Positions 3,156 through 56,408 are shown, numbered from the whole stretch's first letter. The stretch: 63,048 nt of DNA, filler included, from 10 parts of 10 records of this genome joined end to end with filler, not necessarily neighbours in it; one strand, 5' to 3'. Notes: generated by a model not told the origin, from the sequence alone. Program-made: numbers and translations.

Positions 3156-3175
3156 AGTACGAGTTAAGTACGAGT
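3156..3175. repeat. 9-TA-9 scar AGTACGAGT-TA-AGTACGAGT (1-mismatch copy nearby at 3228-3247)
   Basis: Read directly from the sequence. Confidence 0.9.
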
Positions 3176-3344
3176 GCCGCAACGAGCGCCGCCACTAGTA
3201 CGAGTATACGTACTGTACGTACTCATACTCGTACCTTACTCGTATCTCACAATGCCATGAATGCACTCGTATCAAGATACACAATCTCATGCACTTAATG
3301 ATGCTATGATAACATGAACCACGCAGGACGTCGTTGTGACCAGA

Positions 3345-3948
3345 CTAGTACGTGTCGAAATCAACCTGTTGCTGATTGCTGTTTGCTGAGCTCTGCTCAT
3401 GCTCCTGTTTCAACCTGCAGCAACAAAGAATTAATCTCTCCAGGCAAGTGCTGCTGGCTGTACTTGATGATTTCTTCCATCCCGATCTTGTCCTGCGCCA
3501 CTGCAGCCTCGCGTTCCTCATCCTGGCAGCCCCGCTAAGGCCGTCGGCTCGACAGTTATCCCCACCAGTCGGCCGAGCAGCATCACGTTCTCGCCTCGGA
3601 TTATGAACAGGCCCAGCGGCACTTCACCAAACGTCTTCCCGACGTATATCCTTTCAGAGCAATGCTCCAGGACAATGTTTGCTGAGAAAGCGAACAGGCT
3701 CTCAGATTGAGCGGCGGCAGGCAGCGGCACCGAATTGATCGAAAGACCTCAGCACACCGACGTACATGCGATTATCGCGCAGCACTACCAATAGTCGTCC
3801 TGGCCACAGAGTCCTAATCAGCCCGCCGGGCTCCTGTGGCGGCGGCCGTACTGTCGATTTCGTCGACCAGCGCCGTAGTCTCCGGCCCACCCGACGAGCC
3901 ATTCGGGAAGACGCACACCGCCTCTTCTTTCTTGGCCTTGCCCGCCAT
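3345..3948 (-). CDS. LSM1: Sm-like protein LSM1, 5 exons
   Basis: Spliced reading ALVDEIDRRLLVVLRDNRMYVGVLRSFDQFANIVLEHCSERIYVGKTFGEVPLGLFIIRGENVMLLGRLD matches the LSM1 Sm1/Sm2 motifs. Four GT-AG mini-introns restore the frame. Confidence 0.9.
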
Positions 3949-4262
3949 TCCGCAGGCAGCCAATCCTAGCCAGACAATCCCGCAGTCGAAGGCTCACTCG
4001 CAGCTCACCTGGTCAGACAGGCACAGCAGTGAGCGCCAGGCCGCACTGCGACATCAGGATCGACAGCGCCTAAAAGAGCCGGAACAGCGGTCCAGATTAG
4101 CGCCAGACCAGCCGGGGAGGCTGCCTAGCTAAGGAGATCGACGGGTATTTGCCGCACCTTCTGCCCAGAGAACCCTCTCTTGCTCGCACAGGCAGTCCGG
4201 ACTGGCCGCCGGGCAGCTGGTGAAAAATCAGCTGCAGAGACGGGCTCGCGATCGTCGTGAAC

Positions 4263-5633
4263 ATGAGTGGTTACCGAGGAGGCGAACGCGGGAACGGTAC
4301 TGCGCTGCTGTACGAGGGATGGTTGCTGATCTGACGGGCAGGATGCCGGATATACGTCGGGAACCTGCCGTCGGACGTTCGCGAGCGCGAGCTTGACGAC
4401 CTTTTCTACAAGGCACGCTGCCCTCCTGTCGCCTACAAAGGCGGTCGATTCTTGTCCGCGTGCTCCCCTGTTGGAACCGAGGCCCAGAGGATTCGATGCT
4501 GTTTCCCATGTGGCCGTGCTCTCTGCCCGGGCGGACCCAGGGACTTCACTCGGTCGTGGATTCTGGGATGCGTATCGTGACTGGGGTCGGGTCGCCCAAC
4601 TCGGACTCTGGACCGAGTGGACTGGATTGAATGACTGCACACACCCTTCCCACCCTCGAACTGCGGGACCGGAGCCAGTCGGGACCTGTCTGGACTGGAT
4701 CCGCTGGCAACTCGCTCCCCTTTAACCTGCGCCGCCGCGCCCCGGGCTGACCTTGGCGGGTGCAGTATGGCCGCATTCGCGACGTCAGTGTCAAAGGAGG
4801 CGCCTCGGGACCCTGCTTTGCGTTCATCGGTGCTCATCAGCCGGCGTTGGCTCTCAGTGGTCTGCTGCAGAATTCGACGATCCCCGTGATGCTGAGGATG
4901 CAATCAAGGGTCGTGACGGCTACGATTTTGTGCGGCGCTTGCCAGACCGATGATCCCTGACAGCTTGCATCTGTAGGACCGGAACCGGCTGCGTGTGGAG
5001 ATGGCTGGTCGGCCCGGTGGCGGCAGCGACAGAGGAGGAGACCGTGGTCGTGGCGGCGGTCTGGGAGGTCGCTTCCAGCACCGTGTCGTGGTCACCGGGA
5101 TGCCTCGGTCCGTCGGCTCCCTGGGCTCGGGAATGATCAAAACGCTGTTGCAGGACGGCCAGCTGGCAGGATCTGAAGGACTTTCTGAGGGCTGCTGGTG
5201 ATGTGACCTTCACTGACGTGCGGAATGGTGCGCAGTCCAGTCCAAACACTTTGATCAGGCGGGTGCCTGTAGGAGAGGGTGTTGCTGAGTTCTCCAATGC
5301 GGCTGACATGGAGAAGGCCATCAAGGACCTGGACGACACCGAGTTGAAGAGCCACTTTGGAGACACAGCGTGACACGGCAGCCTAGTGCCAGCTGTTGAC
5401 TTGGACGGTGCAGTCACGTGCGTGTCAAGGCCGAAAATGGCGGTGGTGGCGACGACCGCCGTGATGATCGGGACGATCGTGACGACCGCCGCGATGACGA
5501 TAAAGACCGCAGCCCAGCTCGCCGAGACGAGAGCCCTGCTCGTGACCGCAGCCCAGCTCGCCGCGATGACGACGAAAATGATCGTGACGATAGGCGTGGC
5601 CGGAGCAGGAGCCGTAGCCGCGACGACGACTGA
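4263..5633 (+). CDS. SRSF1: SR splicing factor, SRSF1/SF2-ASF-like (RRM + pseudo-RRM + RD/RS tail), multi-exon
   Basis: Spliced product contains [57 protein letters not shown] and a C-terminal RD/RS repeat. One 353-nt GC-AG intron (4413-4765) plus mini-introns. Confidence 0.9.
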
Positions 5634-6025
5634 GTTACTTCATTTTGAAAACTGATGATGGTGGCTTTGTTTGTACGTACCGCCGGCCCTTCCAAGATCG
5701 GTTGCGAGCTCTTCTTAGGTACCGTTACACCTGCTCGTCCTGCTTCCTAGATATAGTAAGTTCCTCTAATAAACAGATTCTGGATATGTTTTTAAATTTT
5801 GTAAGCATGTGCATCAGCGAGATCCCATCATGCATCGTTTTTATATTGGGCCGATTGTAGCACGTGTCCTGGCACGTGTGTAGCATCATTGTTAATTAAT
5901 ATCTGGTGCTCAGGCCACCATGCTCCGGACGAGAGCTACGTATTAATACGAGGGGTCGAGAATGATAGGAGACCAAGGTTGAGACTATACTACGAGACCA
6001 AGGTTCAAAAATTATTATCTCGGTT

Positions 6026-7290: not shown

Positions 7291-7310
7291 AACGAGGCCT
7301 AAACGAGGCC
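7291..7310. repeat. 9-TA-9 scar AACGAGGCC-TA-AACGAGGCC
   Basis: Read directly from the sequence. Confidence 0.9.
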
Positions 7311-7420
7311 CGCGACCCTACGGACCCTATACTACGAGTTCGTAGTACCGTAGTATGTACATGTATTGCGCTTCACTAGTGCGCTTCAATGTTCAATGCC
7401 AGGTATAAAAGTTCCAAGCC

Positions 7421-9100: not shown

Positions 9101-9200
9101 NNNNNNNNNNNNNNNNNNNNNNNNNNNNNNNNNNNNNNNNNNNNTTAATTAATTAANNNNNNNNNNNNNNNNNNNNNNNNNNNNNNNNNNNNNNNNNNNN
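9101..9200. other. Artificial contig linker (N44-TTAATTAATTAA-N44); also at 21210-21309, 26853-26952, 34818-34917, 40882-40981, 44084-44183, 47917-48016, 54412-54511, 59238-59337
   Basis: Identical 100-nt N blocks with a central six-frame stop cassette. Genes are truncated at them. Confidence 0.97.
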
Positions 9201-10095: not shown

Positions 10096-13000
10096 ATGAG
10101 CGCTCCTCCGGCCTGCCCGGAGGCTGCGGCGTGGCAGGCGGCGGTGCGGGCGGCGGAGGCAGCTGCTGTCCCGAGGAACTGCTGCCTCCGCCCGGCCGCC
10201 GCACTCGAGCTGCTGTGCGGCAATCCGCGGCGGGCCAGGAACGCGGGCGCCGTCAAGGTGTTCCTCTCGTCGACGTTCAACGACACCCAGGCCGAGCGCA
10301 ACTACCTGATGGAGTGGGTGTGGCCTGAGATCCGCGAGCGCTGCCTGGCCAAGGGGCTCAAGCTCCGGGTGCTCGACTTCCGTTGGGGGATCGTCGACCA
10401 GGCCCAGCGGGAGCACACCATCACCCAGATTTGCATCGACGAGATCGTCAACTGCCAGACCGGATCGATCGGCCCCGCAGTCATCTATCTGGGCACCCAG
10501 CGCTACGGTGCCCGCCGCCCCCGGCCGCCGCCCCAGCACCGCTGCAGGCTGGCGCCCGCTGCCGGCCTCGGTGCCCGAGCGCGAGTTAGAGCGAGTGGTG
10601 GCCAAGCTCGACCCGACCAGCCCAGACTACCGGCTGGTCAAGCAGTGGTCTCGGCCGGGCTGGCCGGGCTGACGCGCGGCAGGTACCGGCTGGACAAGAA
10701 TGTGCAGCTGGATGGGTCGGCCGGATGGGAGTGTAGGTACGTGCTGCAGCCGCTCAACGATATGATCCCGGAGCTGCGCCAGACCGAGCGGCCGGCCGGG
10801 CTGAGCGAGGCGCTGTTCAAGCAGCAGCAGGAGCGCGGGCTGCAGAGGTGGAACGAGATTCAGTCAGAGCTGATGCGGATCCTTTGCTCAGCCGGTGGGG
10901 CGGTCGCGAGGGCCGGACTGGACAGCGCTGAGCTGATGCGCTGGACGACCTGCGTGACCGAGCAGGAGATGCACGCCGGGCTGCGGCTGCCGGAGAGGGT
11001 GCTCTGCTTCGACAGGGAGATCAACGGTCTGCACTCGCATGTCAACTGGTGCGGGCCTTGAGTCAGCCAGCATGAGCACGGGCAGGCCTCAGCTTTGCAA
11101 GTTCACCAATGCGGACGAGCACGGCCGTGAGATCAAACAGATGACCGGCCTGCTCGACAAGATGAAGAAACACATCTTCCAAACAGTGATAGCAGCCCCT
11201 AAGCGCCGACTGAGAGGACAGTGCAGGTCCCGGCTGCAAACGTGCAGCGGTACAAGGTGGACTGGGACAGCGCGGGGGTGCACATGGCCAACCCAAGCCA
11301 GGCCGAGTACATCAGGCGGATGTGCGCGGACCTCCGGTCGATGATGCTTGGGATGATTGAGCAGGAGTACGCTGCCAGCCCTGTGAACACTCCCTTGATG
11401 AGGGAAGTCAACCATCACGCGCTGATCTGCGCTCAACGGGCCCGCGGGTTCGAATCGCGCCGCTGGCTGCTCGACAGCGTGCGCGACTTGATGGTGCAGC
11501 GGCTGCAGGGTACGTCCGGCTGCTGGCCGAGCGTCTGACCTGCGACAGGCCGATCACGACACAACACTCCAATTGTGATCTGGGGGCATTCGGGCTCTGG
11601 CAAGACTAGTTTGCTGGCCAAGCTAGCCTGGGACACCTCCAACGACAAGGTCGACCCTTGTGCTTGCTGCCGCTCACCCTGTGCAGGAGCTGACTGTCGA
11701 GCCGCCGATTGTGCTTCTGCGGTATTGTGGCACGTCCGCCAACTCGTCCAGTGCCAGGCCGCTGCTGGAGAGCCTCTGCGACCAACTGGAAGCCGCATTG
11801 CAGCTCGAGCACCTGGACGGCTCGAATCGAGCCGATGCAGTGGGCTACAAAGCCCTGAGCTCCCACTGGGACCACTTGCTCAGGCTGGCAGCTAGACACG
11901 GTCGAACGGTTTTTGTTTTTGTCGACGCGCTCGACCAGCTGACCGATGAAGCGTACGGGCGCTCGCGGCTCGGGTGGTTGCCACAGTCAGGACTGCCGCA
12001 GCAGGTGGTGATTGTGGTTTCAACCCTCCCAGATGAAAGATTTGGCGCCTTCCAGGAGCTGCAACGTCGCGTCGCCCCAAAACCTGAATTCATTGAGGTG
12101 CCGACGCTGCTCGGGAACGAGCTGAGTGATATCCTCGAATCTTTGCTCAGCCATCACCACCGCAAATTGCAAGACTATCAGAGGGCTGAGCTTGAGGCTG
12201 CAGCTGCTGTCAAGCCCACCACAGTGCTCAAACTTCGGCTGCTCTGTGACGAGGCATTCCGGTGGCGCTCATACGATCCATTGGAGAGCTGCAGATTACC
12301 AGTGGATGTCAAGTCGATCATTGCGGCGATCTTTGACCGAGTGGAAGTATGCCACGGTCCAGTGCTAGTCAGCAGATGCTTTGCATACCTGGCTGCTTCT
12401 AGGTGTGGGCTTTCAGAGGATGAACTCGTGGATATCTTGAGCATTGACGAAGAGGTGCTAGATGCTGTGCTCATGTGGTGGGAGCCTCCGCAGCGTCGAG
12501 TTCCCTTGGTTGTCTTTATTTATTTACGAAATGCAGTAGCGCATTACCTTGTGGACCGAGGGGAGATCACCTGGCATCACCGCCAGTTCTCTGAATGTGC
12601 CAGGGAGCGGTACCTCAACCCAAGCAAGCCCGAGGAACTCCAGCAAAGAGCTGCAACACTTGCACTGTACTTTAGTGGCAAGGCAGCTGAGCTGAAGGAG
12701 ACAAAGACAGGTGCTCCTTTTGTAAGCAGCCGCAACATCCCGCTCCAGCCGCTGTACCATGGGGACATCCCGAACTTGCGTAAGCTATCAGAGCTGCCAG
12801 CAGCTTACACTCGAGCCAAGATGCTTACAGAGTTGTGTTCACTCCTGACGGATCTCGAGTTCATTAAAGCAAAGTGTTGTGCCAGCATGGTTTATGAGCT
12901 TGTGGAGGACTATCGTGCCGCCCTTTCCTTGATGAAGACCTGTATAGAGGAGCAAGGTGCCACATCACCACGGGCAGTGACGCTGGCATTGTCAAACTGT

Positions 13001-16000
13001 CCGACTGCACCTTGTGTCGCATCAGCGGAAGGGGTGCTCCCTTTAGAACAGCTCGAAGAGCTCTGCGACAGCCTAAAATCACACTATGACTTCATGCTAC
13101 GGAATATCCATTTTCTTGTGTCGCAGCCGCACCTCGTGATTCAGCAGGCGTTTAATGAGCCTGCCAACTCTCCACTATGCCAAGCTGCGGAGCGCTACCT
13201 CCAAATGAATGAGCATGAAAGTGAGCAGGCGATTGTGCGATGGAGACATCGACCCATGCAGCAGCAGGAAGCAAAGACAACACTTGTGGTGACACAAAAG
13301 GGTGAGGCGGTCACTAGTTGCTGCTTCATGCATAACGACGAGGTGCTGGTGACTGGTTCGGCCAACAAGCTGGTGAGCATGTTTGATTTGAGAACTGGTC
13401 GAATAAGAACCTCGTTATCTGGTCACAAAGACATTGTTACCTGTGTCGCGGCAAGCCCAGACAATCAGTGGATTGCCAGTGGGGACTTTTCGCATTGTAT
13501 CATACTCTGGAATGCACACACTGGTAAGAGGCTCGCAGAAAAAGTAGCATTTTATAGTGGGGGGCATGCTACTGGTGTATATTTGATGAAATTCACAGCT
13601 GATTCGACCCGTTTACTGACTGCCAGTGGTACAGATTGTCCCACAGGATCGCCCGTTGGCTGCGTCACAGTATGGAGTGTTGGGCATCCAGAGAGGCATT
13701 TGATCAAATTAGATGTACCACTTGCCTTTGGTTGTGAGCGTGTAGTATATTGGTTCTCAGATGATGGCTCTCAAGCTCTAGTGAAGCATGATGCTGAAAA
13801 GTCGACTACGTTCATGGATATGGCTCCAGAGTGTTGGGAGTTGTGGGATGTTAGTGTAAGCTCTGAATGGGACCCTGAAGAGACAGGGGATCAAGTACTT
13901 GGATACTATCCCCAATATGGCAGGAATGCCCCGAGCCAGATATGGGAGGGCTACACTATATCGGGAGCTGAAAACCGCTATGACTTAACTTCGAGAAGCT
14001 TGACTAGAGCGCAGCGAATGCTGAAAGAGACCGCGCGTGGACGGAAGATCTTTGCAGATTACATCGAGAAATTTGGCACCACTTACTTTCCACTTGGGGA
14101 AGGCTTTGCAATGGAGCGAAGCTTGCACACTTGGCCTCTCCGCGAGTACAGCTATGCTTTCGTGTCGCCGATCTCTTCGGCATCCAGTATCCCGCTGCTT
14201 TTTAATGTACAATCAATCCCTCAATGGCCGTGGGGTCTTTCAAATTGCGGCTGGAGCCCAGGTCCGATTGACCATGTCTTAAACCAATCTAGCAGTGCTC
14301 AATTTGTAGTGGCCACATCGGGCTCACTTGTGGTTGGCTGGGATAACAACGTGCTGCGAACCTGGACATTAGATCTGAATGTCCCGCTTGTTCAACATTC
14401 ACAAGTTGTCAAATATACAGTTGGCGACTTGGTTCTGTACACATCACGTAGCACTGGGACACAACTGCCAGGCATAGTGACCAGGGTTTATGGTGATGGT
14501 ACAGTTGTTTTAAATCCCCGTAGGGTGGAGGGAGAAGAGGAATTAAGACTGAACCCGGGATTTCATGTAGCTCCGGGTGATATGGATAGCATCGTGCTAG
14601 TCGATTCGGCTCAAGCCGGAGCAGAAGCTGGGGGCGAGGCTAAGGTCGGAGCAGAAATGCACACAACAAGTTATATAGTGGCTGGTGCAGGTTCAATTAT
14701 AGTAAATGGCAAGTATGTGAAGGTAAAGGCCGAGAAAAAAGATGATGTGGCCTACTACAAGCATGAGACAGAAGATTACATTCTTTTCCGGTACCAGATG
14801 AACAATGGAGCTAAGTACTGGTACATTAGTAGCAGCAGGAGCATTCAAAGCCAATCTTCGGGCGATCACTACCGCTGCAGATCCTTTGCCGACCTGCCTC
14901 CATGCGATATGGAATGGACAAATCGATTGTGTCCTGATGGCAAAGCCCCAGCGCCAAGAATCCGCATGCAGGAACATACTGGGGGGGTTGCAGAGGTGCC
15001 CGAAGAACAAGAATCAGTGGGAAAGGAGGCTGATGGGCCACTTGTTGAGAAGCCATCCGACGATGACATTCTTGAGGCACTCAGGGAATTGTTTGACGCA
15101 GGGAAAGTGCCGGAATTCATCACTGAAATGGTGGAAGATGAACAGCTTCATTACCGCGATGTGTCGAGTTCTCCACTCTGTACACCCGAGCTCGCGGCTT
15201 TGATACAGGAAGGAGCCCTGCGTTTCTGTCGACAGAGATTGGCAAAAAGAGGCGAATCCGGCCTCAAAAGTGTCGAGGAGATAGATGAAGAGAACGAAAG
15301 GAGAGAAAAGGACGCGATAGCTAAAAGTCTCACTGTACATACAGATCGTGTGAGCCATCAGAATGACGAGCAAGACAGAAAGGAGCCGTCAAGTACAGAA
15401 TTTAGTGGCATAGATATGAGTAATTCGATAGAGCTGAGGCAATCAGTAGAGGTTTGTTTGGAGACAGAGGAATTTAGTGGCATAGATCTGAGGGATTCGA
15501 TAGATATGAGGCAATCAGTAGAGCTCAGTTTGGAGACAGAGCAGACACGAGTTGATACCGCCGAAAGGGATGCCGATGGCTCCCCAGATGATGGTATTGC
15601 CGAGTCAGAATCGCATTCACTGAACCTGTACAGGGCAAGATATACTGGCCATAAGCAGGCGATTAGACAGTGTGTCATCTCTCAACAGGAAAAATTGGTT
15701 GCTAGTGTGAGCGAAGACGGCACCAGCAAAATCTGGGAGATTTCAGAAGGTCAGCCAGAGATGACAGGGATGGCTGTAGTAGACGGGCAGCTTCGTGGCT
15801 GCAGCACACTTCAGCTCGACCCTGAGAGCGATACTGCAATTGCTGCTGCAGTCTTTAATTCCAGGAATATTGAGGTGGTGCGTTTGGACAGTAGCTATCC
15901 TACAGTGATCCAGATGCTTGAGGGCCACCTTGAGTCCATCTTCTCTGTCGTGTTAAGTGCCGACTGCCGTCTTTTGGCAAGTTGTGGCTCTGACTCGACA

Positions 16001-19000
16001 ATATCCATATGGGGGGTAAACAGCGGAGAGGAACTGATACGAATGGCCTACATGGGGACACATGCAGTCATTGGTGTTTCATTTTCTTCTTGTGGAGACA
16101 TTTTGGCATCAGTTGGGACGGACTGTATAGTACGCTTGTGGAAGTTTGATGTCGACAAGCGATCACATGCTCAAATTGCTGGCCTTGGTGGCCATAACCA
16201 CTGGACTGTATCGTGTACATTCAATGCTGACTCGACTTTGGTTGCCTCAGGTGGCCTTGATGGTCGAGTACTAATTCACACAAGGAGTCCGGAGAGTGAA
16301 CAGGAATGGCAGGTCCTAGAAGAAATTAAAGAGTGCTCCGATGGGCTTGCTTGCCTTTCGTTTTCGCATCCTGGTGATCTACACCAGCGGCTGCTGGGTG
16401 GAGGCGAATCGGGCGGGCTTGCTGTCTGGCAGCTTGAGAATGGCAATACATCGAGCGTTCACTTGAAATGCTTCTCGAGTGTGGTCAATGAATGTATCTT
16501 TGGTCCGGTAGGAAGTTCTCTGACATTAGCTTCGTCTCTAGAAGAAAAGTGTGTTGGAATTTGGCTGATCCAGCAAGACTCAAACGGGGTGCTGATTAGC
16601 GAATCAGTGGCGTTTTACACTCTTGCTATGGTCCCAGACTTGTGTTCTCTAGCGCTTCACCCTGACGGGCAGGGACAGCTTGTTGCATACTCGTCATCAG
16701 GCCAGATCTTCGATCTTGAGCTCAATGGGTTAGGACAAATCAACAAGTCGTCCATCAGCAGTAAGCAGTCTGCTCATAAGCACAGCTGGACTGCAAAGTT
16801 CCGTCGTCATGCTAGGACCTGCAGGCTAGCCTGTGGTAGTGTGGAAATTGATGGGGTGTACACTAATACAGACGGCATTGCTGTCAGAGCAGCCTGGAAG
16901 AAAGACAGCCATGATCAAAGTCGCGCTCCATACGAAATATGGCATGACAATGGGCTTTGGAGAGTTGGGAGGCAAACTGAACTCTGGTACGTATGTAAAA
17001 GTGATGACGCGGTGCCGCCATCTGAAGGTTGGCAGCTTGCAAGGGAGCACAGCTTTGACGAAGCTGACGTTCAGTGCTCGGATCGGGCGCATGAGCCGGC
17101 TCCGCAATGCATAGTTGACGATGCAAGGAAGTATGAGTTCTTTGCAGCTCGCTATTGGACAGAACACAGCCTGCCCCTGGACATCAACAGACACTGGCCA
17201 CGAGAAAAGGACGCAGCCCACAGAAACACATTCCAATTTGGAGGTTTCTACAACTCAGTCAAGTCAAGTGCTCCATCGATTTCTTTTGAGCAGCAGATGC
17301 CACCCGGAGAGTACGAAGTGCAGTGGCGGATCAAAGTAACAAGTCAGCGCCATCAGTATTACACCGTTCCTGACCTGCTGTTCACTGCAACAGTAGATGG
17401 GTTCCCGGCCGAGGGGATGCGAACGTTGGTTGGCCGAAAGAAGCAGATGGAAGAGTATCCAGAAGGCTACCACGATATCTCTACTGGCATATTGCGGGTA
17501 GTCACGGGGAGGTTGAAGAGTGCTAGGGTCTGTCTCACAATGACTTGCTCTGAGCTTTTGACTGGCAAAGGATACGCAGTTGGAGGATATTGGGTAGACT
17601 CGATCAAAATTCGGCCGTGCAAACCCCTTCTAGGCAGACCTATGCTGTCGCGCGCCAGACATCTTGACATGCGTCGTACTGATACGCGGAATGACAAAGT
17701 ACCCAAGGTCTCGATCGAAAAGCCAAAGGGTGTAGCTGTTCACTCAGATCTCGGACCGATCTTATGCGACGTTACAGGGATGAGCCCAATCATTGGGAGA
17801 CGATACAAAAAAAAAGGCGAGAATTATGACTTATGCCACGAAGCTTGGATGCAGCTTGATACAGAGGACCAGACAAACTACCTGTGCATTGAGCAGGAGT
17901 GGGAATATCAGGGTCAAGACCTGCGCTCTAGTTCGTCAGACGTTCAAATTCCTGTTTGCATCCAGAATGTCCGAGCAACATCTATTGAGGTGCGGTGGGT
18001 GGACTTTGAAGGGCAGGACGACGAAGTTCTGACAGTGCTTCCTGGGGGAGAAAGTTACCAGCTGACAGCCAATTCTGGCAATGTATTCCGGTTTTATTGC
18101 ACCGTGACATCTGAGTATGTCTGGCATGTGCAAGTAGACCCGAACTCCAGTAACATTACAGTGGGATACCGGAGGTGGGAAAGGTCTGAGGATGGTAGAG
18201 TGCTCCCGGCCTTAGCCAATGCGCATTCGACTGCATCTTCAGCACAGGAATGTCACGACCCGGTGTCTTGCATCAAGGTCAAAAGTCGTAACAGCAACTT
18301 TGCTGTTGATTTTGTGTACTCCAGTGGCCAACATCGACGTTCGATATTTCCGGAGGGACAGTGTTGTCATCGTATAGAAGCTATTCGAGTGTGTAGTGGC
18401 GATTTTATCGACCAAATCGTCTTCAGGTTGGACTCTATGCATGGTGATAGCCCCCTGCTTGCGTTTGGCGATGAGGGTGGAACGTGGTACCCTCCGGTGA
18501 TTCTGGAGCCGCGTGAGGTTGTTTCTTCTGTTGAGTACAAGCAGCGCAGCTTCTTAGATGCAATTCGCTTTTGCTTGTTAGATGAAGCGAGCGGTGAGAG
18601 GCGCTTTACTGCCTGGTTTGGACATCCGGAGCATGAAGAGGGTCAGATTGAAACCGTAACAGCACCAGAAGGCCATTCCATCTGGTGCCTGGAGCGCCGT
18701 GGGCCCAACAATGACTGGTGTGCCTGCATAGCAAACGTGACGTTTATGGATCACTCTGGTTGGATCGAGCATCCTACCTTTATGTTATCATCCGACTTTC
18801 CTCGCGATTACTTAGTCGAGGTATCCATATGGAAGGGGGTGGTGCAGTTGAAGAGTGCACATGGTGCTACTTCACCCTTTTACCATTCCACAATGAGTCT
18901 GCAGTGCTTTGACGCATCCGGGAATACAACAGACGCCCATGGAGATTACGATCCTGACGGTAATCTCAACAACCGGCCCAAATGGAAGAGCAGAACTTCG

Positions 19001-21209
19001 TCCATGTTTGTCTATTGGGCGTATGGCTTATGGAGGGTTGCCAAATCCAATGACAATTTGGTAGAGGCCGAACCCATTTATATCTGTGCCGGTGATGATT
19101 ATATCCCCCCCGTGGACGCTTGGCAACACATAGGCTCGCGGTCTGAGATCCACGCAAAACTGGAGTCAAGCGTCGCATTCTCAGGCAGAAGGTTGTCCCG
19201 CACACCAACCCCCGCAGATGCCCCACAGGTAGCGGAGGAACAGATCACTTACATCCATGAGGACATTGTGTCGGCGAAAGTTCCAGCTGGAGCTGTCCTG
19301 ACATCCATATTCTGTCACTTAAAGGATCAAGACGAAAGCATTGGGTCAGCTGAACCTGTGTCGTTTCAGTTGGTCAGGGAGCCGGGCCATCAGGTGATGC
19401 AGTTACCTGTTTCCACAAGAAGTATTTACATCGAATCGCCGTCACCCTTGGTAGACGGTTGTGACACTGCACAAACCCCTGAATCGCGAATCACGTTGCA
19501 GGCAGTCCTGCGGGAATCCTCTGGCTCAGCAACCACCTGCCTGGAAGCAGACCTTGTGCTATTAGTTCACCAAGAGAGCGGTGCTGATCCTTCTGAGACC
19601 TCTGAAAATTTCCCACCCGTAGTTACATGGCCTACAGATGGACCGGAGTTTCAAGTTTTTAGTGCCACTGCAGAGACATGCATTGTTGGGATTAATCCTT
19701 CTGCAGGGTGTGGTCTGCAGCTCCTTGAGCAGTCGATTCCAGAGCATTGGTACGATAGTGTCAAGAGCAGACAAACGGTTTCACTCAAAGCTGGAATGCA
19801 AGTGCTTGTCTGGACTAGAGAGGTAAAGAACTGGAGGGTAGGGGAGGTCCAAATGCTTTTTCCGTGTCGAAATACTGTCTCAGTTGCCCTCAAACGCGAG
19901 AGTGAGCCTATCGAGGTCCCGTTACATCATCTAGCCACTAGCATGAACCAAGAGATGACCATTTCTAAGAACATGCAAGTCCTGACACGCGAAAATGGCC
20001 AATGGGTGTGTTCTGTAGTCCTAAGATGTCGTGGATCCAAGGCATTGTTGCGTATTACTGACTCGGTGTTTCGCTCAGTGGACGCACCGCATCTAACTGT
20101 CGGAGCGCATATAATGCGCCAGATTGAGAACGCATGTCTGATACACACAGATGTAATGCCGCAGCCCAATGAGGTGAAGTTGCAGGACGATCTTCGAATC
20201 GACTCTGACCTGAGATGCTTCTTCCTTGTGGACCTCACAAAGCGAGAGTGGCGAGCTGCTCACCTGCTAAAGCTCGATGCCAGTGAAGCGTCTGTGTTCT
20301 GTGATGGAGAGCAAGAATCTATTGTTTGTGATCCGCACGAAGTTATTGTAGATAAGCGAGTGGTTCCATCTGATGTTAAAGTAGGCGATCGAGTGTTGAG
20401 AGTATCCAGCGAAGGGGCGATGGAGAGTGCTATAATTAATTTGCACGGCTCAAGTGCGGTGACAAGCCTTCACTGTGCGACTATGGGATACGATGGCAGC
20501 GAGGCTTTGTCACTTGCTCGAGATCTTCGTCAGTTGAATGTGCATTTTGATCATACTTCTACCGATCTCCAGGAGGCTCTCGCGATCGCTGCGACAAAGT
20601 GGCAGCATACTGCACAAAAAATGCGAAGTGAGGAGAGGCCTGGTGACGAAGACAAGGGTCTGAAGGGACAAACGTTGTCAAGCATTTCTCCTTTCTATGT
20701 GTCAGACGCTACAGAGTCTGCGAAGCCAATTCTGTCGATCAATGGGTCGCCGGCGCCCCCAGTATGGCTATGGAGTGCCTTCTCGGGCGAACTGCTTGAT
20801 CCATTCGTGGAAGCGCATGGCCAGCCTCAAGGCTCAGGTGCTGCTTTTGCTCAGATGCGCTGGCTTCTCAAGCGGCTATCTTGCGATCCACTGAATCAGA
20901 CCAGGGCATCAAAATACCTCACATATTGGGGCAATGTGCAGGTTGAGCTGTTGGAGCAGGTAGGAACTTTGCTATTCCAGGCAGAGTTGTACTACTTCGG
21001 CCTGAAGTCATGCTTTGATCAGCAGAAGGAACAAGTTGATCCCGAGAAACTCGCTTGTCTCATCGAAATGCTTGCTCGTGATTTCAGGTACTTGAAGTCC
21101 GGCGAGAAGCGATTACTGCCTGGAGGTTGGTGTGACCCAGACAATGTAGAAACATCTCTCGTGTACATAGTGGAAAAGGGTAGTGATAGCACATATGTCT
21201 TCCAGGTCA
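10096..21209 (+). CDS. Giant NWD1/TEP1-like STAND protein: DUF4062-like N-terminus, NACHT NTPase, WD40 repeats, many accessory domains; 3' truncated
   Basis: VKVFLSSTFNDTQAERNYL...DFRWG, Walker A GHSGSGKTS, Walker B VFVFVDALDQL, and WD40 repeats (GHKDIVTCVAASPDNQWIASG, GHLESIFSVVLSADCRLLASCGSDSTISIW). Six mini-introns before about 11690, then one exon of about 9.5 kb. Confidence 0.88.
15398..15541 (+). repeat. In-frame 72-bp tandem duplication (24 aa x2)
   Basis: EFSGIDMSNSIELRQSVEVCLETE / EFSGIDLRDSIDMRQSVELSLETE, with high nucleotide identity. Confidence 0.9.
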
Positions 21210-21452
21210 NNNNNNNNNNNNNNNNNNNNNNNNNNNNNNNNNNNNNNNNNNNNTTAATTAATTAANNNNNNNNNNNNNNNNNNNNNNNNNNNNNNNNNNN
21301 NNNNNNNNNGGCACCGTGATTACCCTCGATCGCACGCTCGGTACCTGGTACGACCGTACGAGTACAGCTGTACCTGTATGTAGATCTACCCCATAAATCG
21401 TAAGCCATTAAAAAAAAAAAAGCATTCGTGAGTCTAAAGATGGTGTCGTGGC

Positions 21453-21959
21453 ATGGATAAAGCGGAGGAGGAGGCGTACGAGGGGTTCCTCCGGCGGCTG
21501 GAGACGGGCGGGGTGGTGGAGGCGCTCACGGATGTGCTGGCGCTCATGTACCGCACGGGTGACCGGCCAGAGGACGGGCAGGAGTTTGTCAAAAAGTACT
21601 TTGCAGATATGCTGGTCTGGCGGTGCGAGCACAGGATCAAGCAGCAGCAGGAGGAGATACAGGAGCTGCAGGACAAGGCGACCGACCTGCGCGACACGAT
21701 CAAATACGCCGGTTCCGCCCCGAGGGCGAAGCGCCCTCCGAAGCAAGCGCACAGCGAAGAGGCGGAGGGCAAAGCCCCACCCCAGGAGAAGAAGAAGCCG
21801 AGCAAGAAGAAGCCCGCGCCGGCAGCGGGGGAGGCGCCGGCAGTGGAGGTGGCACCGGCAGTGGAGGAGGCAGACGCGCCCAAGCCTAAGAAGAAGGGCA
21901 AGGAGGGGGAATGGTTCAAGGGCGAGGAGCCGGCGGCTGAGGCGGCGGCTGCCGAGTGA
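21453..21959 (+). CDS. MYCBP/AMY-1-like (RIIa/DPY30-type dimerisation domain) protein
   Basis: FLRRLETGGVVEALTDVLALMYRTGDRPEDGQEFVKKYF resembles the MYCBP N-terminus, followed by a coiled coil and an A/E/K/P-rich tail. Confidence 0.7.
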   Translation: MDKAEEEAYEGFLRRLETGGVVEALTDVLALMYRTGDRPEDGQEFVKKYFADMLVWRCEHRIKQQQEEIQELQDKATDLRDTIKYAGSAPRAKRPPKQAHSEEAEGKAPPQEKKKPSKKKPAPAAGEAPAVEVAPAVEEADAPKPKKKGKEGEWFKGEEPAAEAAAAE

Positions 21960-22047
21960 AACAAGGCAGCGGCCGGCGCGGGGTGGACCAGATTCCAGGC
22001 GTCTGAGACAAGAATTGTTATGTTTTGATATTGTACAGCACCGCACC

Positions 22048-22067
22048 AAAAGCCAATAAAAAGCCAA
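22048..22067. repeat. 9-TA-9 scar AAAAGCCAA-TA-AAAAGCCAA
   Basis: Read directly from the sequence. Confidence 0.9.
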
Positions 22068-22174
22068 CGATATCTAGCACAACGACAGGCCGCCACTTCA
22101 GCGTATTGTTATAAAATTACAACACATGTCAATCATCGGCCTCCTTGCCCAACACTGCGCGCTGCCCGCTGAGC

Positions 22175-22884
22175 TCACCAGTCTTGACTAGCTTGATCAG
22201 GAGTCGGCTCCAGCTCGACTGACAACCCGTCCTCCCCGTGCTCGGCCCACAGGTAAGCCACCTGCAACTGCTCACCGGCCACCCGCAAGCACCACGCGCC
22301 GTGCTCCGCGTCTTGAGGATGGCCCTCACCAGCCGGGTGTGCCCCGGCTCCTCCTCATGCTGCCCACGCCGCACTCAGCGCAGACGCCATCGACGGCCCA
22401 CACCACTAGCCGAATGATATTAAAGTCGCGGTCATGCAGCAGCAAGATCGCCGGGATCATCCGCCCAATCCCGCCCTCGGCGTCCGACGAGTTGTCCAGC
22501 GGCGCTTGGGCCTGGCCACCAGCCGGCTCGGGCGCACCGCCGGCCGGCGCCCCACCTTCAGCACGCAGCGCCCGCCGCGCCAGCCGGGCCCGGGGTCAGC
22601 AGGGAGCGCGTTGAACCGCCCAGCCGCCCAACTCAGCCCCCGGCCTGCTGGGGGCTCAGCACGGCCCGGGGAGGCCGCTGACCGCGGTCGCTCAGTCCGA
22701 CGGCGCGGAGCGGCCCGCCGTCGCGGTCGGCGCTCAGCACCGAATGGTCCGACCGATGCCTGCCGGGCCGGTCGGGCGGGTCGGCCAGCTGGGGCTACGG
22801 CAGCTCGACCACCGCAGGACTCGAGGAAGGCACCCGGCACATCCACCTGCGGGATGCCAATCCGCGAGTCGCGACCCGGAGCAT
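22175..22884 (-). CDS. Small hypothetical protein, multi-exon, possible mitochondrial targeting peptide
   Basis: MLRVATRGLASR start. Spliced C-terminus VLKAQAP...ILLLHDRDFNIIRLV...VAYLWAEHGEDGLSVELEPTPDQASQDW* uses GT-AG and one GC-AG mini-intron. 5' exon structure uncertain. Confidence 0.5.
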
Positions 22885-22936
22885 GGCTCTGGTAACGGAA
22901 GCGCGGAAGAGTTCACGCCTGCCCCAGCACTGCAGG

Positions 22937-24463
22937 ATGGGCACCCAGCGCTGCCCGGTGAGTGGCTGCGGCGCCTGTTTCGCCACGCCGCTCGCCCGAC
23001 GGCGGCACCTTGCCGAGGCCCACGCGGGTGGCACGGTTGGGGGGCCGGCGGACGACGACCTGGACTACGCGGGCTGCAGGGCGCTGCTAAGCAGGTTGCT
23101 CGAGGCGTACGGCCGGCCCGAGTTCCAGGCCCAGCTGGCCCGGGTGCAGCAGAGCGGGCCAGGGCTGTATCTTCAGCAGCTGCAGCGGCTAGTGCTCCAA
23201 GTGCAGACTCCGCTATTCGAAGCGTTCGGCCTGCCAGCGGGTGCGGCGGGGGTCGACCGAATGAAGCACGCCATCCACCGCCGGATCGCCGAGGGCAGTC
23301 CGGAGCAGCAGCGTGAGCTGCAGGGAATGGCCAACCAGGCCCGGAGTGCGCTCGGGCTCCAGTCCATCTCGGACACGCGCTTCCAGGCCAGCGCTGAAGC
23401 GATGCTCGCCGAGATGGCCGCCAAAGGAAGCCTGTTGGACCAGCGGTCCGGTGTGGCGGCGCTGCTCGAGAAAGCGGCCGCCGACGGCAAGCTCAGGGAG
23501 CCGATCGCGCGCTGGCTGCGAGGGAGGCTGGAGGGCGGCGTGCCGGCTCGGGTGGTGAGGACAGAGCTGAGCATGGCTGAGGGAGCTGGGCTGCCACTCA
23601 GCTCGCTTTCCGGCGAAGACCTGACCGCGGACCCGGAGCGGGTCATGCGCGTGGAGGTGTGGACGCGGATGCCGACGGCCGAAGAGTTCTTCGCGGCGCA
23701 CGTGCTGCCCAACCGGCCAGCTGTGCTGAGAGGACTCGTCTGTGGCGAGAGCTGGCCTCCAATCCGTGACTTCCCGGACTCGGGCTACCTCCGGCGGCGG
23801 TGCGGCCACCGCCGGGTGCCGGTCAAGAGCCTGGCGGTGCCGGACTCACTCGGGCGGCCGGTATTCGTGAGCGACCCAGAGCTCAAGCTCCCGATGGTCG
23901 CCTTCCTCGATGCTGTTGAGCATTCAGAGCACTCAGGAGCCAAGTGCCCGTTCTACCTAGGCAAAGTGCCGCTGCGGGCTGAACTGCCAGAGTTGGATGA
24001 GGACATTACGAGCGCCCCGCCCCCGCCGGTGAGCGCTCTCTCGGGGTGCTTTGGGCCGATGATACCGCAAGGAGTGTTCACTTACTTTGGGTGCGAGAGG
24101 CAGGTTACTCCCACCCACTTTGACCACGCCGAGAACCTGCTGCTCTGTCTGTGCGGGACCAAGCGGCTGTGGCTGTACCCTCCCAGCAGCACCAGTTCGC
24201 TCTACCCTGTGGGCGATAATGGGTCGCGTTCGGCCGCGCCGCCGTTTCAGACTTTCGATCAGCTGTCGGAGGAACTCAAGGAGACGTTTGGCGAGGTGGC
24301 GCACGCGAGGGCGGTTGAGGTCAACTTGGGGCCGGGCGACTTGCTCTACCTGCCGGCCTGCTGGTGGCATTGCGTGGAAGGCTCCAAGGAGCGGAATATG
24401 ATACTCAATTGGTGGATGGAGCTTCATCCAGACAAACACAATGCGACAAGCGAAGCTCCGTGA
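22937..24463 (+). CDS. JmjC (cupin_8-type) 2-oxoglutarate oxygenase with N-terminal C2H2 finger and protein-C10-like helical domain
   Basis: CPVSGCGACFATPLARRRHLAEAH finger, NRPAVLRG, TPTHFDHAENLL (HxD), and LGPGDLLYLPACWWHCVE (distal His). Intronless. Confidence 0.85.
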   Translation: MGTQRCPVSGCGACFATPLARRRHLAEAHAGGTVGGPADDDLDYAGCRALLSRLLEAYGRPEFQAQLARVQQSGPGLYLQQLQRLVLQVQTPLFEAFGLPAGAAGVDRMKHAIHRRIAEGSPEQQRELQGMANQARSALGLQSISDTRFQASAEAMLAEMAAKGSLLDQRSGVAALLEKAAADGKLREPIARWLRGRLEGGVPARVVRTELSMAEGAGLPLSSLSGEDLTADPERVMRVEVWTRMPTAEEFFAAHVLPNRPAVLRGLVCGESWPPIRDFPDSGYLRRRCGHRRVPVKSLAVPDSLGRPVFVSDPELKLPMVAFLDAVEHSEHSGAKCPFYLGKVPLRAELPELDEDITSAPPPPVSALSGCFGPMIPQGVFTYFGCERQVTPTHFDHAENLLLCLCGTKRLWLYPPSSTSSLYPVGDNGSRSAAPPFQTFDQLSEELKETFGEVAHARAVEVNLGPGDLLYLPACWWHCVEGSKERNMILNWWMELHPDKHNATSEAP

Positions 24464-24630
24464 AAGTTTAGTGAAAGCTTCAACATTCAAAATTTCTAGA
24501 TACATGTATATATTGGTACAGAGTAACGTAGACAACGAATAGACAACGAAAGTAATTACTGTACGCAAAAATAGTACACAATTCAAACGGGTTTTGAGTA
24601 GGTTTTGAGTTCGTTGATGTATCGTTGATG
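24460..24630. repeat. Cluster of four 9-TA-9 scars (24460 with one mismatch, 24531, 24590, 24611)
   Basis: GTGAAAGTT/GTGAAAGCT, GACAACGAA, GGTTTTGAG and TCGTTGATG, each duplicated around TA. Confidence 0.92.
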
Positions 24631-36146: not shown

Positions 36147-36323
36147 TCGCACTGCTATCGCACTGCTATGTCAGATTTTATCTAGATTTTATCGCAATAC
36201 ATGTATAAATAATTACGCGATAATTTACGCAATAGTACTACTCTATATCTAGACGTACTCTCAGCCCAGGATTCGACATCTGTTTGATTGGCGTGGAGCT
36301 GTAGTTAAGCTGTAGTGGAGCTC
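36147..36323. repeat. Cluster of 9-TA-9 scars (36147, 36174, 36297 nested in an older one)
   Basis: TCGCACTGC, GATTTTATC and AGCTGTAGT, each duplicated around TA. Confidence 0.92.
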
Positions 36324-40881: not shown

Positions 40882-41108
40882 NNNNNNNNNNNNNNNNNNN
40901 NNNNNNNNNNNNNNNNNNNNNNNNNTTAATTAATTAANNNNNNNNNNNNNNNNNNNNNNNNNNNNNNNNNNNNNNNNNNNNGCAGTGGCTGGTGAACCCA
41001 CCATTCACGCAAACCAGCCGGCCCTCCGTCATTCGGCCAGCGCGTCGGGTCAGTAACCCACTCAGTACTGCGTAAATAATAATAAAATAATAATAACGGT
41101 CAAGGACG

Positions 41109-43724: not shown

Positions 43725-44307
43725 TTAACCTTGCAATGTCATGTCGTGACGCATGGACGTGCACAAAGTAAGTCTAAGTAATTAGTTCTTACGTAGATGC
43801 TGTCATCGGCTCGTAAAATCCTAAGAATTTATGGTCCACGGTAAAGTTTACAATTAAGCTTGTGTACACATACGTGTTATTCGTACATGTAAAGTACATG
43901 AATTGTATCGTCGCTAATCGTCGCGGCTCAGTCTTGTCAGTTTTGGCGGGAAAGTAGTTCGAAACTCCGTGCACCCTCCTCTCTTTGTGGCTGACGTTCG
44001 GTTTCCCGCGTCCCCGGACTGATCGCGCAACAATGCCGGGTACAGCAGCAACTGAGCTCTCCGAGGCCTGCGAGGTGACACGGNNNNNNNNNNNNNNNNN
44101 NNNNNNNNNNNNNNNNNNNNNNNNNNNTTAATTAATTAANNNNNNNNNNNNNNNNNNNNNNNNNNNNNNNNNNNNNNNNNNNNTTCATACCACTGAATGA
44201 TGCCCTCTATGCGAGTATACACTGATTGTTTCAATTGATGCACTGATTATATATATCGTACGTAGTAGTACTGGCACTATATTTCTACCGGCCCCCACGA
44301 CCCAACC

Positions 44308-46573: not shown

Positions 46574-46789
46574 ATCTTATAAAATCTGTTTATTTTAAAC
46601 CCCATCGTCCGAGGAGTACTACCGCGACTATCGTGCTGCGAGCTCTAGAGCTCGAATAGCTTACGAAAAGCTACACGAGCTACACCATCACAGTCAGATC
46701 CTGAGGAGCGAGTGTACGGTTTATTGAACACACGCCGTGTATGTACTGTATGGGGAGCCGTAGGGCTGGAGCGGAGCGGAGGTAGGCCC

Positions 46790-52319: not shown

Positions 52320-52529
52320 CCATACTTGGGTCTGTCCTAGTTTTGCAGTGTGCTCGTAAGAGTGTTATATGGCATTAATTAATATACAGTTGATGTTGAC
52401 CATAACAGACTCGAATCTGCTAATCCGGCTATTCGATGATAATTATACGTACATGTACGAGTACTCGTACTCGTACCTGACTCGTACCAGTTGTGAAACG
52501 ATTGGAAGTAGACAGAAGCCGCATGAAAG

Positions 52530-53276: not shown

Positions 53277-53440
53277 CCCACAGGACCAGCAGAAGAGGAG
53301 AGCGAAGAGCCTACGGCACCTCAACAACCCATCTTGTGGCGTTCCGTTGGAGCGTGGTCACCGCGGTTCCTGCCGGGGCACTTGCCGGGGCACTTGCCGG
53401 GGCCCTCGTGGCCCAGCCGCGGCACGGTCTGGCTGGGCTC

Positions 53441-54411
53441 ATGACCGACCTGCCGCTCGTGCTGTACGAGCTGCCCGCCTGGGATGGGCCTGCAGCTCAA
53501 GTGGGGGACCCGTGTGCCGCCAGCCCCGGGTTCTGTGCGAACACGCTTGACCACGCCGCAGCAGCCGGGGCGTACAAGAACAAGTGGGGTCGTTGCCATT
53601 GTGCGGGCTGGTGCAGAGATGTCTACAACCAGGTCCACAGCCCCGTCGCCGGCGATCTTCTCCTCACCCCGGCCTCGGGGATCGTGTTCCGGACGCAGCT
53701 GCCCGCTCTCGTCCGTCAGCAAGTGTTCCAGGCTGGAACGTCGATCCGGCTTTGCCCGGTCAGGGAGTCGACGCTCGCTGTGGTCGAGACGCAGTCCATC
53801 AACCGGGGAGTGGCGGGAGCGTTTCAGTTGCAGGCCGCGATGGGCTGGGTAGCGCTTGATCAGCTATGCCAGCTAGGCCGCTCCGTGCTGACTCGGCTAG
53901 ATGCCGGCCCGGCTCAGATGCCGCCCCAATCGACACCTGTGCGGGTGTGGTCAGATGCCGTGAACCAGCTCCGCTACCCAGAGTTCCTGGTGGACGATCC
54001 GTTTGACCCTGCGCCAGAGATTCGCCAGCTGGACCTGGAGCGGGCCACCTCCCAGCTCCCAGCTCGCCGCCAGGAATTCTTTCAGCTTTGTCAGCTTGTC
54101 GACAAGCTGAAGTCAAGCTCAACAGGGTCGTCTTTCCCCGCCCAGGTTCGCACGCTGGACCCCACTCTGGCTCGGACAGGACCTGTCGCTGTCGCTGTGG
54201 CGCAGGATCACACAGACGATCCGGCTGACGTGAAGTGCTGCTGGGGCAAGATGTATTTGATATGGCTGATGGTGCGCTTGGCACCGCTGCTCCACAGCTC
54301 AGGGCACTGGCGGCTGACGTGGGACCCTGTGGCCAAGGCTTACGTGGGTCCGTGGGACCCTGATCCTGTACTTGCCTGGGCAAACAGGGCAAATTTGGCA
54401 CCTTCCAAGCT
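53441..54411 (+). CDS. Hypothetical protein, 3' truncated
   Basis: Open frame with protein-like composition to the contig end. No family recognised. Confidence 0.55.
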
Positions 54412-54911
54412 NNNNNNNNNNNNNNNNNNNNNNNNNNNNNNNNNNNNNNNNNNNNTTAATTAATTAANNNNNNNNNNNNNNNNNNNNNNNNNNNNNNNNN
54501 NNNNNNNNNNNAATGGTGCTGATGATCTGCTTGGCCGCAATCGGCGTTCATCTGAGCTTTATCTAGATCAGAATTTAGATACCTTACAGATTTCAATGGT
54601 TTTTCTCAAAAAATCGTGCGAGGTGGGGCAAGTTCCGGACATTCATGTCGTTCCGGATTCCGTAGTTCCGGGGCCAGGTACCGGTACGCCACGTCGCCGA
54701 GGTAAGCCGCCGACAGCTCGGGGGTGCTGCTCCGGAACTTGTCCATGTCCGCGATGGCTCGGGCCTGGCCCTTGGTCGCCGACAGACTCAACACACGGCC
54801 GCTGCGCCCCGCTGGGACCTCCCGGCGGCCACACCATCGCCATGCATCGGCCGTGTCGACGTCCGCACTGTTCCACTGTTCCGTTCCAGAGACGCCAAGC
54901 CGCTAGGAGAA

Positions 54912-56201
54912 ATGCGGTGCAGCCGCGTCGGGCTGGTGCTAGGCCGGGCCGCTGGCCTGGTGAGAGCGAGCCCTGCGCTGGGTCTGACGCACGGCCAGGC
55001 GGCGCTCGGCAGTGGAGTGGCTGCCACTGGCGGCTGGCCAGCCCCAGGCCCGACAAACGGCGCGGTGGTGATCGGTGCGCTCCGGGGCTGGACCGCCTGA
55101 TCGGATGGCCCAGGCCCGTCGGGCCGGCTGGACCAGGTGTGCACCAGCATCAACTACCAGGCGGCCAGCTGCGAGCCCAGTCTGCGCCGCAACGGCAAGG
55201 TTGGCACCCAGCGCGCGGCCTCGGGCAGCGACAGCGAGCTCTTCGGGGTGACGTGGGATGCTCACCCGGTCTGGATCAGCAACGGGCGCGGCCGGGGGAT
55301 GCGGCTGGACCAGGACGGCTTCGAGCTGCTCAAGGCCCCCGCGCCCCGGATCGACCTGAAGGACGAGCAGGCCATTTTGCGCGACTATTACCCAGCTACG
55401 TGCCGGCTTGTCAAGCAGGCCGCGGGGGCCGACGTCGTAGTGGCGTTCGATCACAACGTCCGGAGCAGCGGCCAAAAGCAGGACGCGCAGAGGATCAAGG
55501 GCGGGAACAGCATACAGGAATCAGCCCACATTGTACACACCGACTACACCTGCACATCCGCGCCTGCCCGTCTGAACCAGCTGACCCAGCCACCCAAGAC
55601 CAACGACACGGTCGCAAGCCTGACTGGCGGGGCTCCGCTGCTCTCCACCGAGCTGGTGGAGCAAGCCAGAAGAGCCGGCGGCCGATTCCAGATCATTAAC
55701 GTCTGGCGCTCTATCACTCCATACCCAGTGCCCCAGGTGAGCCGTGTGCCTTCGAGGCGCTGCAGCTGAGCGACTGTTGAACAGGCGCCACTGGCGGTGT
55801 GCCGGGCGTGCACAGTGAAACCGAGCGAGATGGTCACGTTTGAGATTCACTACGCCGACCGGGTGGGCGAGAATTACTTTATGAAGCACAGCCCGGAGCA
55901 TGACTGGTACTATTACCCAAAGATGAATCGAGACGAGGCGCTAATAATCAAGCAATGGGACTCCGAGAGCAGCTTTGCTGGGCTCGAGCACGGCAGTGCG
56001 GACCCGCTAGATCTCGGGGCAGACTTGCCTGACGGGCCATCGAGCTTTGCATTTCATTCCGCATTCGAGGATCCGACCACGTTACCGGAAGCACCACCAC
56101 GAGAGAGCATAGAGGTCAGGTGCATCGCACTGTTCTTCCCGGATACAAAGCCATTCCGGTGCTCAGATGCCGAGAATGGCCCGAATTTACACCGGCTGTG
56201 A
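54912..56201 (+). CDS. CmcJ/NvfI/AsaB-family oxidoreductase, multi-exon
   Basis: LDQDGFEL, YYP, FDHNVR, VHTDYT, INVWRSI, PLAVC, WYYYPKM, KQWDS, HSAF, RESIEVRC. Confidence 0.85.
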
Positions 56202-56211
56202 TGATTATATT

Positions 56212-56408
56212 CATGGATGTTACATGGATGTACTCGTAAGCTTAGTCTAATTAAGCTTACTTGTAATAAGCCAATGAGGAGGCCGTGCGTTGTAAAGTAA
56301 GACTTGACCCATTAAGTGGTTGATGCATCCGAGTCGTCCTATATGGATCGGTGCATGATTGCATAGATATTTCTCACAAAGTGTAATAAATGATCCTTAA
56401 ATGATCCT
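56212..56408. repeat. Two 9-TA-9 scars (56212-56231, 56389-56408)
   Basis: CATGGATGT-TA-CATGGATGT and AATGATCCT-TA-AATGATCCT. Confidence 0.92.

Follow-up and report, generated by a model that had tools for sequence, protein, structure and literature searches.

Tc1/mariner transposons leave invariant footprints on excision, which derive from overhangs of the element itself. In elements of the Sleeping Beauty type the footprint is an invariant small insertion in which both copies of the target and fixed end bases have been brought together by end joining. The piggyBac elements have complementary overhangs of the flanking DNA that religate unprocessed and therefore give one reproducible product. 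Their excision is described as seamless (PMC7351741), and a general scheme of excision footprints is given in PMC5499845. In this report we describe a recurrent scar in a stretch of DNA of 63,048 nucleotides (nt), the whole of which is referred to below as the window, in which a 9-mer occurs twice in direct orientation around an invariant TA (X9-TA-X9, or 9-TA-9), and we compare it with the footprints of known elements.

The superfamilies with duplications of 9 base pairs (bp) were compared by their published descriptions, duplication length being treated as a superfamily signature (PMC10045372). Mutator-like elements (MULEs, e.g. Muta1 and Os3378) have target duplications of 8–10 bp, typically 9 (PMC5499845; PMC4423477), with GAG as the terminal consensus of the rice Mutator elements (PMC4423477, Table 1); Merlin elements have duplications of 8–9 bp and 5'-GG termini (PMC8101967); and AcademH elements have duplications of 9–10 bp (PMC10045372), in agreement with the 9 bp that a preliminary description of the window had given for them. 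The IS3EU/GingerRoot elements combine TA..TA termini with 6-bp duplications (PMC10045372). Among those checked, none of the 9-bp superfamilies is described with a 9-TA-9 scar. AcademH is said, in the title of its paper, to be found in animals and fungi. No description of a 9-TA-9 footprint was found in the literature searched, which consisted of open-access full texts, and passages on introners in PMC12130899 hold nothing relevant to the pattern.

The closest behaviour to that of the scar is the Tc1/mariner footprint and, in its logic, the sticky-end religation of piggyBac; membership of either fails on the duplication. Tc1/mariner elements duplicate TA alone and leave about 3 of their own bases, whereas here 9 arbitrary bp remain together with a TA, and the TA is not a target duplication of that kind, an empty allele of one scar (at 24531) passing from the 9-mer to the flank with no TA in between. 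The piggyBac overhang is the target, TTAA, and excision leaves no scar, whereas here the element would have to contribute the bases that pair, and the two target copies are retained. The 9-bp length fits the MULEs, and TA..TA termini of the IS3EU/GingerRoot type would supply the TA.

The window is a metagenome assembly of ten contigs joined by filler of the form N44-TTAATTAATTAA-N44 (at 9101–9200, for example, and at eight further junctions), and its source is called here an uncultured marine protist. It holds 12 perfect 9-TA-9 motifs (Table 1), every one at the position given in the preliminary description and, as was also stated there, on five contigs. Exact 9-NN-9 matches number 25 in all, and 12 of them have TA as the spacer, TA being the least frequent of the 16 dinucleotides in the window (2.7%). 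A scan over repeat length k and spacer, which had been proposed as a check, gave 1, 0, 1, 12 and 0 matches with the TA spacer at k = 6, 7, 8, 9 and 10, respectively, and such 9-TA-9 motifs averaged 0.02, and never exceeded 2, in 2000 shuffles carried out in blocks of 60 nt. The duplication is of two copies and of fixed length, as a footprint requires, with the spike confined to k = 9. When match runs are tabulated by period and length, period 11 has 13 runs of 9–12 bases, which are the 12 TA motifs and one with TG, and in the spacers of low guanine and cytosine content (GC) 13 of the 33 repeats of at least 8 bases have period 11, the other periods having 1–3 each and periods 10 and 12 showing no comparable excess. 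The 9-mers are all different, and no consensus emerged from the 9-mers and flanks of the 16 sites compared, which bears out the earlier argument against a binding site. The excess of 9-TA-9 in the window is confirmed as real and specific.

The event is a duplication of 9 bases with an added TA. A tandem duplication of 11 bp needs a run of at least 11 matching bases at period 11, and in eight of the 12 perfect motifs the run is 9 or 10 (Table 1), so these eight are not products of slippage; the TA at these eight is not supplied by the flanks, and the earlier claim that it is added material, rather than part of a plain 11-bp slippage duplication, holds. Among the 11 scars that are not of low complexity, a flanking TA is present at three, which is near the chance figure for AT-rich spacers of about 20%, itself a rough and uncomputed estimate.

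The scars are confined to non-coding spacers, as the preliminary description held and as GC and reading-frame tests bear out. The low-GC, non-coding-like fraction of the window comprises 9108 positions (14.6% of called bases) and contains 11 of the perfect scars, the twelfth being the low-complexity motif at 41074. No scar was found in any coding-type frame of the window, as judged by GC at the three codon positions (GC1, GC2 and GC3), though the window is mostly coding, and none lies within an open reading frame (ORF) of 9.6 kilobases (kb) at 11660–21265 that matches the spacers in its low GC. Convergent gene ends host most of the scars (3156, 24460–24630, 36147–36316 and 56212–56408), with one in a divergent-gene spacer (7291) and one in a tandem-gene spacer (22048), and clustering is seen, with four scars in 171 bp (24460–24630), three in 170 bp (36147–36316) and two that are a single base apart. 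A stop codon begins or lies within two scars, one being the TGA of the JmjC ORF (24460–24468) and the other a TAA in a locus of a second organism described below (L005, 1113–1115); in both the first copy of the 9-mer retains the stop, so that the reading frame is unaffected.

The sequencing runs that contain parts of the window sequence are exclusively aquatic or seawater metagenomes; four DNA-type runs match (shares 0.10, 0.06, 0.00 and 0.00), and no RNA run is listed. Logan contigs of four runs were aligned to 21310–26852, with patchy coverage (13, 9, 1 and 2 of 30 bins) and with several short low-identity pieces, probably from other organisms, left out of account. In one run (X1) a contig of 324 nt matches 24274–24539 with three differences and no gaps, and hence carries the one-mismatch scar at 24460. 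At 24531 the same contig has a single 9-mer and then runs straight into the sequence found in the window behind the second copy, apart from one substitution and another small difference farther along; this is an empty allele. The older scar, at 24460, is thus present in an independently assembled sample as well, and the perfect one at 24531 is polymorphic, with an empty site of the kind expected for an excision footprint. A check for three alleles per site, empty, filled and scar, had been proposed, and of these the empty and scar alleles were seen at 24531 in assembled contigs, while a filled allele was not found among them. The empty allele is either ancestral or a revertant.

The scars are young. 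In the low-GC fraction, 11 copies of the TA type have no mismatch against 0.64 expected from other spacers, and the excess is nearly gone in copies with one mismatch (3 against 2.1), two mismatches (5 against 4.5) and three mismatches (10 against 7.8). This near-absence of a decayed tail indicates either a recent onset or a quick loss of scars, and not accumulation. The proposal that the scars are building the intergenic DNA was therefore overstated; some 14 scars amount to about 154 bp in about 9.1 kb of low-GC non-coding DNA.

The pattern recurs in a second organism. Metagenome contigs were scanned with two proteins of the window, of which the JmjC protein yielded no relatives and the DHX16-type helicase yielded 80 loci (741,001 bases) that were used as a control set. 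The closer relatives among them (L001, L002 and L016, with 92%, 83% and 85% amino-acid identity) are transcript-length contigs with little or no spacer DNA. Perfect 9-TA-9 motifs occur in four of the 80 loci (L003–L006) and in none of the other 76 (670,777 bases, very AT-rich loci included), which argues against a general artefact of assembly or library and shows the pattern to be restricted to certain lineages. The four loci overlap, share about 98.6% identity and come from a single GC-rich organism; the named proteins closest to the variable N-terminal part of their helicase are those of Phaeocystis, Emiliania, Diacronema and one 'Calci...' species; judged by this protein, the organism is a haptophyte-like alga. 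Its helicase does not appear in the top 45 matches to that of the window. Over the queried C-terminal portion the window helicase has relatives with 93% and 92% identity, and its nearest named proteins, at about 57% over the full length, come from green algae and animals alike. The nearest named proteins to the window JmjC protein are from dinoflagellates (41–44%). The protist of the window and the haptophyte-like alga appear not to be closely related. Three sites are present in the alga, one in all four contigs (L005:14040), one in a region covered by L005 only and one in L005 only, and they lie just past ORF ends or in low-GC spacer. At L005:14386, the site present in L005 only, a single copy is found in L003 and L004. 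Among the indels that separate the haptophyte-like contigs, a length of 11 bp is not generally over-represented.

Two larger differences between these contigs resemble mobile elements, one being a near-perfect foldback of about 100 nt (L003 5715–5811 against L005 7830–7916) and the other an insertion or replacement of about 2 kb just upstream of the helicase gene (L003 6736–8734 against L005 8725–8734). Both are without 9-bp duplications or TA ends.

Table 1. Repeats of the 9-TA-9 type and their variants in the window, with the length of the match run at period 11
Feature	Positions	Run	Remarks
Perfect scar	3156..3175	9	X9 = AGTACGAGT; flanks without TA; local GC 0.45; convergent-gene spacer
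9-TA-9 with 1 mismatch	3228..3247		In GTAC-rich repeat shared with 52444–52486; doubtful as an independent scar
Perfect scar	7291..7310	9	Between divergent LARP1-like gene (-) and next gene (+)
Perfect scar	22048..22067	9	About 90 nt past stop of coding-type frame 21438–21956, upstream of JmjC gene; tandem genes
Older scar, 1 mismatch	24460..24479		First 9-mer holds TGA stop of JmjC ORF; also in independent run
Perfect polymorphic scar	24531..24550	11	TA precedes too; empty allele in run X1
Perfect scar	24590..24609	10	One base from scar 24611
Perfect scar	24611..24630	9	
Perfect scar	36147..36166	12	TA follows too
Perfect scar	36174..36193	10	
Perfect scar	36297..36316	9	
Pattern-perfect, low-complexity A/T	41074..41093	11–12 (by elimination)	Local GC 0.57; scar status uncertain
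8-TA-8 variant	43907..43924		Low-GC spacer; possible imprecise scar; new relative to the preliminary description
9-TA-9 with 1 mismatch	46653..46672		Absent from the preliminary description
9-TG-9 variant	52469..52488		In tandem CTCGTAC-type repeats; probably repeat structure, not scar
Perfect scar	56212..56231	9	14 nt past stop of + strand ORF, convergent-gene spacer
Perfect scar	56389..56408	11	TA precedes too

Of three degenerate copies listed previously, that at 24460 stands, with one mismatch and with its presence in an independent run; that at 3228 is doubtful in its repeat context, and that at 43881 has two mismatches and is at the level of noise. A sixth contig had been counted through the TG variant at 52469, which is likewise doubtful as a scar because it lies, as 3228 does, inside a low-complexity GTACGAG/CTCGTAC stretch of two spacers. 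The expected number of copies of this heptamer in the window is 4.1 and the observed number 22, which was reached in 0 of 100 shuffles, and the heptamer clusters in several spacers (3157–3234, 21356, 34730, 52455–52487 and elsewhere), two of which have in common a GTAC-rich stretch of 43 nt with 88% identity in self-BLAST (3205–3244 and 52444–52486); the heptamer could be either a signal in spacers or a family of small repeats. At the perfect scar 3156 the 9-mer is present a third time, 21 nt downstream. A single 9-CTAG-9 repeat (7367–7388) and two 12-mers repeated across 13–14 nt in spacers (5969–6005 and 59401–59438) may be due to chance or to small insertions of another kind.

From the anatomy of the scars we read them, with moderate confidence, as excision footprints of one or more unseen cut-and-paste elements that duplicate 9 bp of target and have T...A ends. 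The staggered target cut of a transposase would give a duplication of fixed length, and the remnant of two symmetric ends of an element would be a palindromic dinucleotide, always the same, between the two copies. Insertion would take place through a 9-bp staggered cut and generate the 9-bp duplication, the ends of the element would read 5'-T(A)...(T)A-3', and excision would leave one or two end bases on each flank. By one route, two 2-nt TA 3' overhangs would anneal and be ligated, cleavage of the non-transferred strand having taken place, as it does in Tc1/mariner, 2 nt within the element; by another, each flank would carry a 3' overhang of a single T, and fill-in at the junction would precede the joining. 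Either would produce X9-TA-X9 on both strands and a net gain of 11 bp, which would frameshift coding DNA, so that scars would persist only in spacers. Direct repeats of 9 bp that are 2 bp apart would in turn be prone to deletion by slippage, and the return to an empty site would let perfect young scars dominate.

Several observations weigh against excision footprints. In the window there are no pairs of 9-mers up to 8 kb apart around an insert with inverted-repeat ends, and none up to 6 kb apart around a TA...TA insert, which would be a filled site. In the 80 helicase loci no candidate combines TA...TA ends with a terminal inverted repeat, the matches there being at chance level only and mainly in AT-rich loci. 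Self-BLAST of the contigs (3 matches) gave no repeat shared by contig ends, and a transposase or integrase family was found in 0 of 145 scanned window ORFs, which comprised 14 long ones and 131 of the 202 of at least 110 amino acids, the other 71 overlapping scanned genes and being set aside by hand. The sample searched for an element consisted of 63 kb and an estimated 27 kb or so of non-redundant haptophyte-like sequence, and these are parts of genomes, not whole ones. An intact element with 9-bp duplications and TA...TA ends, for which the preliminary description had suggested a search, was thus not found in the window or the related loci, nor was one with T...A ends; what stands of its transposon reading is the fixed length of 9, the added TA and the empty allele, while no filled allele and no transposase were found. 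In the haptophyte-like alga all three sites are exact 11-mer tandems whose flank also supplies a TA, and L005:14386 differs from its empty allele by 13 nt, i.e. by 11 and an extra AC.

The described behaviour of known families adds to these points. Muta1 excises by way of flank hairpins, more than 90% of the events in yeast being precise, with the removal of one copy of the duplication (PMC5499845), and in rice a clean pair of duplications remained in only 8 of 94 excisions (PMC4423477), which makes uniform scars unusual. The scar outcome of Muta1 and the GAG ends in rice differ from what is seen here, as far as those sources go, and no MULE transposase was found in the scanned ORFs. The GG ends of Merlin do not match a leftover TA, a mismatch that presumes that the leftover comes from the element ends, and membership of IS3EU/GingerRoot fails on its 6-bp duplication against the 9 bp found here.

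A host process without any element, in which break repair or replication would duplicate 9 bp with a TA at the junction and slippage would later remove the copy, strikes us as rather unlikely. In one candidate form a nuclease would cut with a stagger of 9 nt, and the ends would then be filled in and given a fixed addition of 2 nt. No repair pathway known to us combines a fixed 9-bp duplication with an invariant added TA, and fill-in with a non-templated A should, by reasoning alone, yield AT and not TA; set against this, an element-free process would agree with the finding of no element, filled site or transposase in the 63 kb or in the haptophyte-like loci, and its forward and backward steps, if fast, would fit the scarcity of copies with one or two mismatches. 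The exact 11-mer tandems at all three sites of the second organism are in its favour, as is a flanking TA at 6 of 14 scars when both organisms are pooled, compared with the rough 20% estimate, whereas the lack of a flanking TA at eight of the 12 window motifs and the lack of any spread of lengths around 9 are not.

It is improbable, in our view, that the scars are the work of an integrase or transposase that is non-resident or domesticated, brought in, for instance, by a virus, virophage-like element or episome, with scars alone remaining after a hit-and-run visit. Such an extrachromosomal agent would make it easier to combine dense scars with the missing resident element and would suit their occurrence in two organisms that are apparently not closely related; the window, however, yielded neither a viral nor an integrase gene, and as a variant of the footprint reading it is indistinguishable from it on present data.

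Ordinary 11-bp tandem duplication through replication slippage is very unlikely. The period is indeed 11, and full 11-mer tandems make up four of the 12 window motifs and all three of those in the alga, but the runs of 9 or 10 at the other eight are too short for it, no 11-mer tandem that lacks a TA in register occurs in the window or in L005, and slippage is not favoured by the want of a comparable excess at periods 10 and 12 in the low-GC spacers. An artefact of library or assembly, such as a chimera from Tn5 tagmentation carrying a 9-bp duplication, is more doubtful still. The stagger of Tn5 is 9 bp, and the window does stem from a metagenome assembly; the preliminary description had said that such an artefact would be limited to one library and would appear in exons too, and neither is the case, since scar 24460 is present in an independently assembled run and the coding DNA that makes up the bulk of the window has no motif. 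Four separate metagenome contigs share the site at L005:14040, there are 0 matches in the remaining 76 loci (671 kb), and a tagmentation chimera should, on reasoning only, bring in adapter sequence and not TA. Functional elements, e.g. paired binding sites one helical turn apart, would be in keeping with the restriction of scars to spacers near gene ends but are scarcely credible, as the 9-mers all differ without a consensus and one site is present or absent between strains.

Three further candidates were rejected. A P-nucleotide footprint from flank hairpins is excluded by added bases that are independent of the flank sequence; truncated insertions of retroelements were rejected for the absence of a length series of inserts between the 9-mers, and fill-in with A-tailing for its expected product, which would be AT and not TA.

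The gene content of the window is eukaryotic, with a LARP1 HEAT region, the DHX16-type DEAH helicase, the JmjC/cupin protein and ankyrin and kelch proteins found by Pfam scan, and with no transfer RNA genes (by a scan for them) and no Rfam matches in the window. Pieces of an anthranilate synthase are spread over different reading frames, which implies introns, and a SET-domain gene shows GT...AG introns. Coding frames are high in GC1, low in GC2 and high in GC3, and the spacers are GC-poor; according to the GC profile of the window, low-GC spacers form the end of several contigs. The ORF at 11660–21265 (+ strand, 3201 amino acids), which occupies most of one contig, encodes an NWD1-like winged helix and several WD40 propellers and is a compositional outlier, with a GC of about 50% and a GC3 of 0.51 compared with about 0.8 in neighbouring genes; self-BLAST shows a 72-nt tandem repeat inside it (15398–15541).

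Stated more broadly, and only tentatively, an undescribed process may write a mark of +11 bp, consisting of a TA and a copy of the adjacent 9 bp, into the intergenic DNA of marine protists that seem not to be closely related, with slippage erasing it. Possible agents of such a process are cut-and-paste elements of a new class or an integrase that is domesticated or travels with a virus, either of which would enter and leave with nearly perfect fidelity and rarely be caught in place, and element-free break repair. If the scars are footprints, they would form a clean and countable record of transposon traffic, with the low-GC non-coding DNA of the window holding a scar every 650 bp or so, by an element that is invisible in the assembly, and the fixed format of 9 bp and TA would predict the ends of that element and its cleavage geometry. 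If no element exists, they would represent a new mutational signature. The scars are simple presence/absence markers between strains, and the near-absence of decayed copies offers a handle on the turnover of small insertions in compact protist genomes, of whose intergenic indels the +11-bp process, if it is real, would be a major and measurable source.

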